Source of the DNA: a virus
Taxonomy: Duplodnaviria; Heunggongvirae; Uroviricota; Caudoviricetes
IMG/VR virus record: IMGVR_UViG_3300047392_000113
Span: 1 to 55,151 of that record
Reading direction: 5' to 3' (one strand)
Length of the DNA: 55,151 nucleotides
Position numbers and translations under genes: made by a program. Below are positions 843 through 8,773 of this stretch, one piece after another; positions within the stretch are counted from its first letter, which is position 1; each line of letters begins with the position of its first letter. The notes below the pieces were generated by a model that did no database searches, was not told where the DNA came from, and saw nothing but the letters and a program-made list of their open reading frames with translations.

Positions 843-941
843 AAATGTATTGAAGGGACTCCTACCCTTCGATCCAAAACGGTATAAACCAACGAGACTC
901 TTTTTTACAAAGGGACTCCTCTAAGATACACGGGACTCCTT

Positions 942-1181
942 ATGAAAAAGAAACTAACTGTAATAGACCATGGAACGATGGTTTTTACGCTAAAAGAAAA
1001 CATGGTTAAATGCGAACTTTTCGAGGGATATCTCTCGAATAAACTTGCTGCAACATTCTATGTACCTAGGGACTCCTACGATAAAATTTCTGTTCCCTCG
1101 GACATTGTACGGTACAGACTAAAGCACGATTTTAATATCGAGATCGGGCACTATTCTGTAACCAACAAAATTGAACATTAA
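942..1181 (+). CDS. hypothetical protein
   Basis: 79-aa ORF bracketed by GGGACTCCT copies. Confidence 0.55.
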   Translation: MKKKLTVIDHGTMVFTLKENMVKCELFEGYLSNKLAATFYVPRDSYDKISVPSDIVRYRLKHDFNIEIGHYSVTNKIEH

Positions 1182-1208
1182 GGGACTCCTCCCTAAGAAA
1201 GGCGATAT

Positions 1209-1472
1209 ATGACAGGATTTAAATCTAAAGTTGCAATGGCAAATTCTCGGGCGGGGACTCCTGCTCCACATTACTCTAATACTGATAATCCAGTAGATTT
1301 TCCTGTAGGGACTCCTGAGGATATTAACAGTGAATACTACTCATATCTCGACGATCTTCGAGATTCGGGGGTTACTAATATGTTTGGGGCTGCACCGTAT
1401 CTGGAACGTGAATTTGGTCTAGACCGTCGGGAAGCTAGGGATATTCTTCGTCAATGGATGGATTCATTTTAA
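1209..1472 (+). CDS. conserved phage hypothetical protein
   Basis: C-terminal LDDLRDSGVTNMFGAAPYL motif recalled from small phage proteins. Confidence 0.7.
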   Translation: MTGFKSKVAMANSRAGTPAPHYSNTDNPVDFPVGTPEDINSEYYSYLDDLRDSGVTNMFGAAPYLEREFGLDRREARDILRQWMDSF

Positions 1473-1483
1473 GGGACTCCTCT

Positions 1484-1582
1484 ATGGATGATCGAGCATT
1501 CTTTGCAGCTATTATAGCAATTTGCTTAGTGTTTACTGGGCATCCTATATTAGCAGTGTTGTTATTTTTATTTGTAGCGTAG
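1484..1582 (+). CDS. 32-aa hydrophobic peptide (not in ORF track)
   Basis: MDDRAFFAAIIAICLVFTGHPILAVLLFLFVA fills the gap between two GGGACTCCT copies exactly. Confidence 0.5.
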   Translation: MDDRAFFAAIIAICLVFTGHPILAVLLFLFVA

Positions 1583-1590
1583 GGACTCCT

Positions 1591-6543: not shown

Positions 6544-7581
6544 ATGACTACATTACACACACCAAAAATCGGTTTTGCCTGCAAGTGGATTGATAACGCT
6601 ACTCAAGTTGATGGCATTGGTCCAAAAGATGACGCACGCAAATACAGCACTGGCACTACAACTATTGCGTGGCTCAATCGTCAAAGCGTAGACGTTGCTG
6701 AACAAAAACTCTGGGATTTGACCAAACAAAACCTTCAGAATGTATTGAACCTTGTACTCAAAGTTTCAACCTTGCCAGAAGGTTTACGCATGGTTCGCCT
6801 TTCCAGCGAAATTTTACCAGTCTACACCCATGCTGACTGGAGTTACTTTTACAAACGTCCAGATATCCTAAAACTTATGGAATACTGCTTTGCTAAAATT
6901 GGCGAAGTAGCACGCACGAACAATGTTCGTCTTTCTTTCCATCCTGGCCAGTTCACTGTGCTTGCTTCTGAAAATGCTGGTATTGTTAATAACTCTATTG
7001 ACGAATTCGAGTATCATGCAGACATGGCACGTATGATGGGTTACGGTAAAACATTTCAAGACTTTAAAATTAACGTTCACATTTCTGGTAAACTTGGTCC
7101 AGAAGGTATTCGTGCAGCTTACAAACGTCTTTCTCCAGAAGCACGCAATTGTATCACTATCGAAAACGAAGAAAATGCTTGGGGTCTTGATGATGCATTA
7201 TCTCTCAGCGATCTACTTCCTATTGTGTTAGATGTTCACCATCACTGGTGTCGTGAAGGTGAATACATTGCGCCTACCGACGATCGTGTTAAACGTGTTA
7301 TTGATTCTTGGCGTGGTGTACGTCCAACTATGCATTACAGCGTTAGTCGTGAGGATTATCTGGTCGGTCACAGCAAAGATGTTGAGCCTGACTATGCCTC
7401 TTTATTAGCTAGTGGTTATAAAAAAGCAAAGCTGCGTGCTCATAGTGACTTCTACTGGAACAATGAAGTAAATGCTTGGGTTCTTGGTTTCTTACCAACA
7501 CACGATATTATGTGCGAATCAAAAGCAAAAAATCTAGCTAGTTTTTCTTTGTATGAGGCATCAAAACAATTTTACGCATAA
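6544..7581 (+). CDS. uvsE: UV-damage endonuclease (UVDE family)
   Basis: RLSSE, RLSFHPGQFTVLAS, ITIENEE, VLDVHH, MHYS and AHSD motifs. Confidence 0.92.
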   Translation: MTTLHTPKIGFACKWIDNATQVDGIGPKDDARKYSTGTTTIAWLNRQSVDVAEQKLWDLTKQNLQNVLNLVLKVSTLPEGLRMVRLSSEILPVYTHADWSYFYKRPDILKLMEYCFAKIGEVARTNNVRLSFHPGQFTVLASENAGIVNNSIDEFEYHADMARMMGYGKTFQDFKINVHISGKLGPEGIRAAYKRLSPEARNCITIENEENAWGLDDALSLSDLLPIVLDVHHHWCREGEYIAPTDDRVKRVIDSWRGVRPTMHYSVSREDYLVGHSKDVEPDYASLLASGYKKAKLRAHSDFYWNNEVNAWVLGFLPTHDIMCESKAKNLASFSLYEASKQFYA

Positions 7582-7993: not shown

Positions 7994-8773
7994 ATGGCTC
8001 GTAAAGCAGCAGCAGTGGCTGTAAAGGCAGTAAAAGATAATGAACAAAGTGAGCCAACAAGATTAAAGGCAGTTAACAATCATTTAAAATTAAGAATTGA
8101 TGATCTACTAACGTTTGATCCGTTAACTGAAAACCAACGATTATTTTTTGATGCGTATAAAAGAGGAGACTATTTTGTAGCACTCCATGGAGTAGCTGGA
8201 ACGGGTAAGACATTCTGTGCATTGTACAAAGCTATTGAAGAAGTCTTAGATAAATCAAATCCATTTAACAAAATTATCGTTGTTCGTTCAGCGGTACAAG
8301 GTCGTGAGATCGGACATCTTCCAGGTGATGTGAATGAGAAGATGGAAATTTATGAGCAACCATATCGTCAAATTTGCGAAACTTTATTTAAGCGCAAAGA
8401 TGCATGGGATAGATTAGAAGAACAAGGTCATATCCAATTCATTTCCACATCTTTTATTCGTGGTATGAGTTTCGATGATGCTATCATCATCGTTGATGAA
8501 ATGCAAAACTTGACCTATGAAGAGATTGATACCGTTATGACTCGTGTCGGTTATCGATCTAAGATTATTTGGTGTGGCGATTATCGTCAGACAGACTTGA
8601 ATAAAAGAAAGAACGATGTAACAGGAATCTTAAAATTCTTCGACATCGCTCAACACATGGGTGCTTTTACTCGTATTGAGTTTACTGTTGACGATATCGT
8701 GAGATCTTCTCTCGTTAGAGATTATATTTTGGCTAAACTTAAATATGAGGATTTCTATGAGAAGAAACAATGA
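7994..8773 (+). CDS. phoH: PhoH-family ATPase
   Basis: GVAGTGKT Walker A, IGHLPG, FIRGMSF, IVDEMQN and GDYRQTD motifs. Confidence 0.92.
   Translation: MARKAAAVAVKAVKDNEQSEPTRLKAVNNHLKLRIDDLLTFDPLTENQRLFFDAYKRGDYFVALHGVAGTGKTFCALYKAIEEVLDKSNPFNKIIVVRSAVQGREIGHLPGDVNEKMEIYEQPYRQICETLFKRKDAWDRLEEQGHIQFISTSFIRGMSFDDAIIIVDEMQNLTYEEIDTVMTRVGYRSKIIWCGDYRQTDLNKRKNDVTGILKFFDIAQHMGAFTRIEFTVDDIVRSSLVRDYILAKLKYEDFYEKKQ

Follow-up and report, generated by a model that had tools for sequence, protein, structure and literature searches.

A clustered, co-oriented short repeat in uncultured T4-like phages and podophages: possible recognition sites for a DNA-binding factor

The Cox boxes of phage P2 and DnaA-box clusters such as datA are arrays of co-oriented short protein-binding sites. 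In T4-like phages, the hyperplastic, ORFan-rich regions are where adaptation to the host takes place, and the signals that organise them are little known apart from the promoter-early stem-loops (PeSLs). PeSLs are composites of a sigma-70 early promoter and a terminator, are spread over a series of hyperplastic regions and differ between phage groups (PMC2839356; PMC4122927). The T4 origin oriE, which is dependent on an early promoter, contains a cluster of 12-nt direct repeats with a role that is still undefined (PMC3016281), and origin-dependent recombination hotspots in T4 are the subject of a further paper cited in that source (Genetics 2001, 157:1077). Here we describe the 9-mer GGGACTCCT, present in nine co-oriented copies near the start of a 55,151-nt stretch of viral DNA (the window; IMG/VR record IMGVR_UViG_3300047392_000113, positions 1 to 55,151), and compare this array with the known systems.

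The array is real, statistically robust and widespread. The most far-reaching interpretation, given slightly less than an even chance, is that GGGACTCCTA is the word of a new factor, most simply a host DNA-binding protein or enzyme from a group of uncultured aquatic bacteria, and that phages as unrelated as T4-like myophages and HTVC023P-like podophages each recruited it. Among the T4-like lineages the word would form part of a mobile non-coding module, one cluster per genome, that controls and reshuffles accessory genes.

The array in the source phage

An exact search of the window found nine copies of GGGACTCCT on the + strand (starting at 855, 912, 932, 1069, 1182, 1254, 1308, 1473 and 1582) and none on the − strand. 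The copies span 736 bp (855–1590) with spacings of 57, 20, 137, 113, 72, 54, 165 and 109 nt, and A precedes seven of the nine. TAA adjoins the copies at 1182 and 1473 and TAG overlaps that at 1582, while ATG follows the copies at 932, 1473 and 1582 by 1, 2 and 0 nt, respectively. The copies are located in non-coding DNA and in three codon phases; those within open reading frames (ORFs) translate as R-D-S (1069) and G-T-P (1254 and 1308). The original prediction for this DNA had reported the nine copies, the lack of any other in the window, the spacings, the preceding A, the contacts with stop and start codons and the two in-ORF frames, all of them correctly.

Dinucleotide shuffles of the window gave a mean of 0.14 copies and a maximum of 1. 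The complete genome is 170,832 bp long, with a 127-bp overlap of its ends that indicates a circular assembly, and the window is its start. A genome-wide count with strand bias, proposed at the outset as a check, returned the identical nine + strand copies and none beyond the cluster; an even spread over the genome, which would have spoken against the idea, is not what was seen. The control word (the 9-mer reversed) does not occur in the genome, nor does the reverse complement of GGGACTCCT, and the 8-mers GGGACTCC and GGACTCCT are likewise restricted to the cluster. A copy with one mismatch, GGGACTTCT, was found at 2206 and a variant, GAGACTCT, at 894; the same variant is found in the arrays of other contigs. 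Outside the cluster, sub-words of the motif show no depletion, on which ground avoidance of a restriction site was rejected.

The source phage is a T4-like myovirus with baseplate, tail-fibre and gp17-type terminase genes, and every gene in its genome is on the + strand. The closest cultured relatives are the Pelagibacter phages HTVC008M and Mosig and the Methylophilales phage Melnitz (approximately 40% identity, gp6 homologue). The array is set in a run of small early-type genes between two sigma-70-type promoters (155–182 and 2445–2473), which are the nearest predicted; none was predicted on the + strand within 855–1590. At the stop-codon junctions TAA and GGG form TAAGG, which is near to TAAGGAG, the usual ribosome-binding site of this phage. 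Among the window copies, the motif can be placed in a loop for copies 1 and 5 only. The features of the region are given below; L numbers refer to loci in other sequences, treated in the following sections.

155–182, + strand: sigma-70-type early promoter TTGTCT-16-TATAAT, likely start of the transcription unit that crosses the array
458–667: 69-aa ORF just upstream of the array, conserved in L066 and matching the SutA RNA-polymerase-binding domain below threshold (24.9 bits against a cut-off of 29.3)
855–863, + strand: copy 1, intergenic; hairpin with its flanks, GAAGGG-ACTCCTA-CCCTTC, 6-bp stem
894–901, + strand: GAGACTCT variant with a T run behind it; found also between copies 1 and 2 in L066, L101 and L037
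912–920, + strand: copy 2, intergenic; the 57-nt and 20-nt spacings of copies 1-2-3 fit the 55–61 and 19–21 module of other T4-like lineages
932–940, + strand: copy 3, 1 nt ahead of the ATG of the next ORF
942–1181, + strand: 79-aa ORFan; nearest database homologue 96% identical, two homologues only in 5.8 billion proteins
1069–1077, + strand: copy 4, inside ORF 942–1181 (R-D-S), in a 12-codon stretch that differs and is motif-free in the homologue L571
1182–1190, + strand: copy 5, right behind the TAA of ORF 942–1181; its L066 counterpart directly precedes an HNH_3 endonuclease ORF
1209–1472, + strand: 87-aa chimeric ORF; N-terminus MTGFKSKV... homologous to the start of an intact L066 gene, C-terminus a widespread small phage protein of the LRDSGVTNMFG type
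1254–1262, + strand: copy 6, in frame (G-T-P), left edge of the insert relative to L066
1263–1590, + strand: 328-bp segment missing from L066, which has a single motif copy there; direct copies at the borders and two more inside
1308–1316, + strand: copy 7, in frame (G-T-P)
1473–1481, + strand: copy 8, right behind TAA and 2 nt before the ATG of the next ORF; identical stop–motif–start junction in L021
1484–1582: 32-aa membrane ORF, its ATG 2 nt after copy 8
1582–1590, + strand: copy 9, overlapping TAG and abutting the ATG at 1591; right edge of the insert
1591–1824, + strand: 77-aa ORF; its C-terminal part shares homology with the 3' portion of the gene that is intact in L066
2204–2217, + strand: terminator-like hairpin with a T run behind it, the stem-loop being made by the one-mismatch copy (2206–2214); likely end of the transcription unit of the array
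2445–2473: next early promoter
6544–7581 and 7994–8773: UvdE-type UV endonuclease and PhoH-like protein, downstream of the array region

Arrays in other uncultured phages

IMG/VR was scanned for two copies of GGGACTCCT 40–70 nt apart, which gave at least 119 loci, and for the control word under the same scan, which gave at least 117; the counts that follow are among the matches listed. Three or more co-oriented copies within 1 kb were found in 70 of the 119 loci. Irregular, frame-independent arrays of at least three copies were found in 52 of the 119 motif loci against 2 of the 117 control loci, a 26-fold difference, and 98% of the spacings of the control word were multiples of three, as in coding tandem repeats. 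Counted by contig, irregular co-oriented arrays of the word are present in at least 54 viral contigs. In six contigs of 64–146 kb that were scanned whole (G001–G004, G022 and G023), all copies in the array orientation lie in one cluster of less than 1.7 kb; two of the six have a single stray copy on the opposite strand. The consensus drawn from 196 distinct contexts is longer, (not G)GGGACTCC-T-A, with G at −1 in 2%, T at +9 in 92% and A at +10 in 73%.

These counts bear on the possibility that the array reflects chance, a protein repeat or an assembly artefact. GGG-ACT-CCT encodes Gly-Thr-Pro, some of the database matches are collagen-like (collagen-like tandem repeats are present in 6 of 150 neighbouring ORFs) and all bacterial matches are periodic. 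The tests nevertheless refute this explanation, and its probability is negligible: no shuffled sequence held more than one copy, the window copies occupy three frames as well as non-coding DNA, and irregular arrays outnumber those of the control word as given above. Nor is the array an artefact of assembly, a doubt raised in the original prediction, because it is present in independent assemblies of relatives.

Sorted by their flanking genes, the arrays occupy at least four T4-like genomic contexts and a fifth, podophage lineage. The context group of the source phage itself includes L021, L054, L066, L070 and L108. In group A, three intergenic copies lie between a tail gene and the gene-5 hub module, and one further copy is at a fixed internal position in a gene for a PanD-like aspartate decarboxylase (L026:5622–5996 and group A homologues; Pfam Asp_decarbox, E = 8.5e-35), which is located in the baseplate module immediately upstream of the gene-5 hub gene. 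Groups B and C have dense intergenic arrays, frequently next to an Hsp20 gene. A basic module recurs, consisting of box 1, approximately 55–61 nt often with a hairpin, box 2, approximately 20 nt, and box 3, which is just upstream of a gene. The spacings are 57 and 20 nt in the source phage, 61 and 20 nt in group A and 55–57 and 19–21 nt in groups B and C, and their recurrence across the T4-like groups points to a probable common, transferable module. A GC hairpin follows box 1 in group A and in groups B and C; most window copies are without a hairpin. Groups B and C also have a conserved CGGAAAA-N3-4-CGCG element just ahead of box 1.

The terL of the podophage lineage is closest to those of the Pelagibacter podophages HTVC027P and HTVC023P, and two copies 63 nt apart are located in its terS–terL spacer (contigs L012, L014, L023, L025, L027, L041, L057, L084, L099 and L123). 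HTVC023P/027P-like contigs have, upstream of terL, a conserved GC-rich spacer with a length of approximately 150–370 nt, represented in L014 (1243–1475) by the 230 nt between terS and terL. This spacer also holds GCGCAT-N-ATGCGC palindromes and may be a packaging or regulatory element.

The closest relatives with long contigs, G004 (86% median protein identity) and G002 (67%), carry the array, which is missing from G011, a complete relative at 64%, and from G006 and G007, near-complete ones at approximately 45%. An orthologue of the neighbouring gene 1836–2189 was found in 65 viral contigs, 64 of them without the array; the sole carrier is L021. Absence from close relatives had been named as an outcome that would count against the array: its presence in the two closest goes the other way, and its absence at 64% identity and from 64 of the 65 contigs with the orthologous neighbour gives the objection some force. 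Eight cultured relatives of the two lineages, Pelagibacter, Methylophilales and Synechococcus phages among them, carry no array, and BLAST of the array regions of three other contigs and of the first 6 kb of the window against a phage collection gave no match. In the literature the word was found only in unrelated primers and not in a phage context; as far as could be found there, the GGGACTCCT array is undescribed. One exact 10-nt word is common to distant uncultured phage lineages, always clustered, with no occurrence in the cultured relatives tested.

Selection on the copies, and gene gain and loss

Selection acts on DNA and not on protein, as the original prediction had argued for nucleic acid from the differing frames, because the copies span three frames, the motif is invariant in the PanD-like gene and the copy at 1069 is in a variable stretch. 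Within the PanD-like gene of group A, six diverged sequences agree at 17 successive nucleotides across the motif, the longest such run in the gene, and third positions neighbouring it vary. The ORF at 942–1181 is 66% identical to its homologue L571, in and around which the motif is absent, and the copy at 1069 lies in a 12-codon stretch unlike that of L571 and equal to it in length. Because this stretch differs without a change of length from a motif-free homologue, it argues for selection on the number of sites in the locus, which appear where they are tolerated, and not for scars of junctions.

The motif could instead act in RNA, where GGGACUCCU in an early polycistronic transcript would be recognised by a sequence-specific endoribonuclease or by an RNA-binding protein (RegB-, RegA- or CsrA-like), or would form a special ribosome-binding junction through which the translation of small genes is coupled. 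In the T4-like phages all copies are on the sense strand of a one-directional genome, approximately 9 of the 31 copies in the group of the source phage are 0–3 nt before a gene start and several come right after a stop, where TAAGG approaches the usual ribosome-binding site, and a hairpin is often found behind the first copy. However, the podophage copies are antisense to both flanking genes, terS and terL, in 10 of 10 contigs, and L045, L064 and L074 have an inverted form, GGAGTCCC, in place of the direct copy found at the corresponding position elsewhere, which together argue against a purely RNA-level role. In L101 and L107 copies are upstream of and inside a promoter and hence outside that transcript, and over all arrays an ATG within 0–3 nt is scarcely enriched (27 of 337). 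No Rfam family matched at the arrays; pairing between adjacent copies was predicted, through the GGA-C-UCC near-palindrome, and no covariation was found for any fold, so that known RNA families and RNA structure were rejected. CsrA-type ANGGA sites, one of the original suggestions, are at odds with conservation over 10 nt and with the lineage whose copies are antisense to its genes. A role in RNA is considered unlikely.

The source phage and L066, its closest relative in this comparison, are collinear, the source phage having a 328-bp insert (1263–1590) where L066 has a single copy. A gene that is intact in L066 (MTGYRSKV...-motif-...VLRAQLELLQRVN) is split exactly at the motif in the source phage, such that the copy at 1254 closes the homologous N-terminal part and the copy at 1582 precedes the homologous C-terminal part. 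The insert contains two further copies and two small genes, and the same two small genes, each with a stop–motif–start junction, are found in a different setting in L021. The segment 911–1190 is 93% identical to L066 and its flanks are 75–81% identical. The related contigs L050 and L085 have an array in common and different downstream genes, and homology between relatives ends at or beside arrays. In L066, a free-standing HNH_3 homing-endonuclease ORF (L066:1711–2130, − strand of the locus, 139 aa) comes directly after the copy that corresponds to 1182. This endonuclease was rejected as the enzyme of the motif, since it abuts a copy in L066 only and the source phage genome has no HNH_3 match.

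Several of these features would suit a dedicated recombination or insertion system with GGGACTCCT as its crossover or target site and small cassettes that integrate, excise and leave copies at their junctions, with a loose likeness to integron cassettes or target-site-specific insertion: the gene split by an insert between direct copies, the stop–motif–start junctions around consecutive small ORFs in the source phage and L021, the high identity of 911–1190 relative to its flanks, the shared array with different downstream genes in L050 and L085, and the HNH_3 ORF that begins immediately behind an L066 copy. Such a system is nonetheless doubtful. No recombinase, transposase or shared nuclease was found (one resolvase among 150 neighbouring ORFs, and no HNH_3 in the source phage), a palindromic or inverse-core partner site is lacking, as the genome does not contain the 9-mer in reverse complement, and the dense arrays, with 10–20 nt spacing, contain no cassettes. 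The variable ORFs of group A have no flanking motif, the copy at 1069 is a same-length difference with no junction, and an identical insert pattern would be expected from any 9-bp direct repeats. A dedicated system is not needed to explain the 328-bp insert because variable ORFs occur unflanked in group A, dense arrays are geneless, no recombinase was found and any direct repeat of 9 bp suffices. In this one clean case the direct repeats served as short homologies for gene gain or loss. What stands of the original proposal of recombination sites for cassette shuffling is the insert bounded by two copies against one in L066, and what is not needed is the dedicated machinery.

Candidate sites for a DNA-binding factor, and the known systems

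Tentatively, and at somewhat below even probability, we favour the reading that a single sequence-specific DNA-binding factor, probably encoded by the host, recognises the nine copies as an array of sites and acts on transcription of the accessory locus, recombination at the repeats being a side effect. The protein-binding operator or iteron array is the best fit among the hypotheses originally listed. The 'GGGACTCCTA box' would be the recognition site of a factor that has no gene next to the array and probably comes from the host. The array belongs to a portable non-coding module found once per genome in several T4-like lineages, with a distinct two-copy version in the podophages. In the source phage the module appears to have grown into a compact early operon, where the extra copies seem to occupy the only places that tolerate them, either stop–start junctions (TAAGG, Shine-Dalgarno-like) or variable coding positions. 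The bound factor may act on transcription into or through the accessory-gene locus, as an operator or a roadblock array, and the direct repeats would supply short homologies where genes come and go, as in the one case at the L066 gene.

Promoters were scanned in 74 array-bearing loci, where strong promoters were those with 11–12 of 12 positions matched and copies within 60 nt of the −10 box. Strong promoters with nearby copies were found in L101, L107 and L108 only. In both L101 and L107, a copy is located in the spacer of a perfect TTGACA-N16/17-TATAAT promoter and starts 16 nt before the −10 box; extra copies cover the −35 side and, in L107, also the +1 position. In L108, two copies are immediately upstream of the −35 box. 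In most of the dense arrays examined, the last copy is followed at 10–70 nt by a ribosome-binding site and an ATG in the same orientation, and in several of those in groups B and C it abuts TATATAA, which resembles the core of the T4 late promoter. In L036, L044, L078, L093 and L105 (groups B and C), the gene divergent from the array has a TTGCAT/TTGACG-N17-TATAAT promoter, and because its −10 box is only approximately 5–6 nt from the start codon, this suggests a leaderless mRNA. A relative without a GGGACTCC array, L159, has four tandem co-oriented perfect or near-perfect DnaA boxes (TTATCCACA; 1085–1200) with 11–12 nt spacing, approximately 50 nt upstream of a TTGCCA-N17-TATAAT early promoter. 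By this example, such phages do carry arrays of host-factor sites.

A host factor would be the simplest partner because unrelated phage types share one exact word and no phage protein tracks the array. Clustering of neighbouring ORFs, Pfam searches of 150 neighbours, comparison of gene content between motif-bearing and motif-free genomes and comparison across lineages revealed no co-travelling phage protein. Hsp20 recurs beside arrays in groups B and C only, and the LRDSGVTNMFG family occurs to the same extent in array-free relatives. A Tet_JBP cluster was found in three motif-bearing genomes and not in two motif-free ones; the link to TET/JBP was rejected, as the complete relative G011 has a TET gene and no array. 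In the genome of the source phage, outside the window (104,337–109,276; L357), the cluster encodes a Tet_JBP oxygenase (454 aa), a 2OG-Fe(II) oxygenase, a glutamine amidotransferase, a GNAT-like protein, an amino acid:DNA transferase (ADDT) and P-loop nucleotide kinase 3, and resembles a thymidine-hypermodification pathway; TET homologues are present on more than 300 viral contig stretches. The source phage genome also contains genes for a NifU-like scaffold and two IscA/HesB-type Fe-S assembly proteins (136,953–137,936; L358), which are found in G001 and G004 and not in three motif-free relatives. CcrM-type methylation of the embedded GANTC was rejected, no N6_N4 methyltransferase having been found in five genomes. 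GACUCCUA resembles 16S rRNA positions ~336–343, a likeness that was rejected as it covers 8 nt only, does not extend into the flanks and is within chance.

Several observations weigh against an array of sites for a DNA-binding factor. No binding protein for the array was identified, and the spacing is irregular and not helically phased. Because no sigma-70 promoter was predicted within 855–1590, the sites could act here only as roadblocks or in some other way. In bacteria, searched for three close copies with one genome per species, only periodic coding repeats in high-GC taxa were found, and no phage-type arrays. The promoter geometry is known from two or three loci, and in the T4-like phages all copies are co-oriented with transcription, which is compatible with an RNA role there. 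The genes adjacent to arrays vary by lineage (Hsp20, tRNA, PanD-like, ORFans), which is odd for a gene-specific operator and would suit a role at the level of the genome, for instance as an accessory origin, equally well or better.

As iterons of an accessory replication origin, the copies would resemble the cluster of direct repeats at T4 oriE, an origin whose firing starts from an early promoter. Each genome has a single cluster of direct repeats, located behind an early promoter in a region that is transcribed early, the spacers of many dense arrays are AT-rich, and the group A array adjoins gene 5. In T4, oriE (repEA/repEB) is also beside gene 5. An origin is nevertheless improbable, given the irregular spacing against the evenly spaced oriE repeats, the lack of an initiator gene nearby or of any conserved neighbouring protein, and the copies within coding sequence. 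The GC-skew check that had been proposed for an origin gave a monotonic cumulative curve with no origin signal, a weak test since all genes are on one strand.

Little credence is given to an oriented DNA signal for a moving or strand-specific enzyme, be it a Chi-like site used by RecBCD/AddAB of the host or a site of nicking in one strand, as with the localized nicks in T5 and phiKMV-like phages; clustering would raise the chance of a response by the enzyme. The word does have the expected form, being 8–10 nt, asymmetric and strictly on one strand; a phage-encoded partner would be unnecessary, and the word is common to unrelated phage types. Homology between relatives breaks at or near arrays, and the podophage pair lies between terS and terL, near a possible packaging end. 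The phiKMV nick consensus reportedly contains ACTCC. The motif is, however, not dispersed through any phage genome, and the gathering of all copies in one cluster tells against the Chi-like sites of the original prediction. Five arbitrarily chosen bacterial genomes from different phyla, which may not include that of the host, showed no striking excess or skew. T4-type genomes are expected to be circularly permuted, as the circular assembly suggests, and one cluster cannot guard random ends. The arrays are 20–60 kb from terL in T4-like genomes, a distance on which a pac site was also rejected, and placement in promoter spacers would be left unexplained.

If the arrays are sites for a shared factor, they would represent a new, widespread class of phage cis-element and a sequence tag that ties uncultured phages to a common host. 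The word could be used as bait for the binding factor and to sort phages into groups that are likely to have a host in common or to exchange DNA, and the array offers a natural test of short repeats as drivers of gene gain and loss. Were the factor a host protein, the arrays could reveal how phages tap or titrate a host regulator.

Among the known systems, integron attC sites are similar in that small promoterless ORFs in one orientation are bounded by a short conserved sequence, with an insert between direct copies. They differ from the array, which has no integrase, no imperfect-palindrome attC structure and no inverse core, and which in many cases contains no cassettes; no tyrosine integrase was found among the array neighbours. 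The oriented genome-wide excess of Chi contrasts with 0 copies outside the cluster in 170 kb. CsrA/RsmA sites have an A(N)GGA core, as a rule in RNA hairpin loops, with little else conserved, whereas here GGGACTCC is conserved together with T and A, and the podophage copies are antisense.

As summarised in PMC3016281 for Vaiskunaite et al. (1999), T4 oriE shares with the array a cluster of direct repeats in a T4-type genome, in a region with small early genes transcribed from an early promoter, conservation among close relatives only and a putative role. By the same summary, the oriE repeats are 12 nt and even, whereas those of the array are 8–10 nt, irregular and at several genomic locations according to lineage. 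Iterons are evenly spaced repeats, usually of 12–22 bp; the spacing here is irregular and the conserved word 9–10 nt.

Cox boxes and DnaA boxes are, like the copies described here, asymmetric sites of approximately 9 bp in one orientation, at or near promoters, that are read by a small or host protein, and the DnaA array of L159 is upstream of an early promoter in a related phage. They differ in that the array word is not known to match any described site and its copies reach into coding DNA.

Together with the oriE repeats of T4, PeSLs (Arbiol et al. 2010, PMC2839356; Comeau et al. 2014, PMC4122927) are the closest elements described. PeSLs and the array are alike in being short, conserved and non-coding and in lying where T4-like genomes are hyperplastic. 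Both border small ORFan genes that vary between close relatives and are thought to be exchange points, and the basic GGGACTCC module likewise couples a hairpin with sequences just upstream of a gene. A border of this kind is seen where copies 1254 and 1582 enclose the insert relative to L066; as to a stem-loop, copy 1 forms a hairpin with its flanks, and most window copies form none. Unlike PeSLs, the array is an exact 8–10-nt word and not a sigma-70 promoter, no such promoter being found in 855–1590, and it forms one cluster per genome, here nine copies in 736 bp and likewise in the other large contigs, where PeSLs are spread over hyperplastic regions. The word is also identical across distant lineages, including podophages, and is present in coding sequence. 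The array is a variant within a general kind, the short repeated cis-elements of phage hyperplastic regions.

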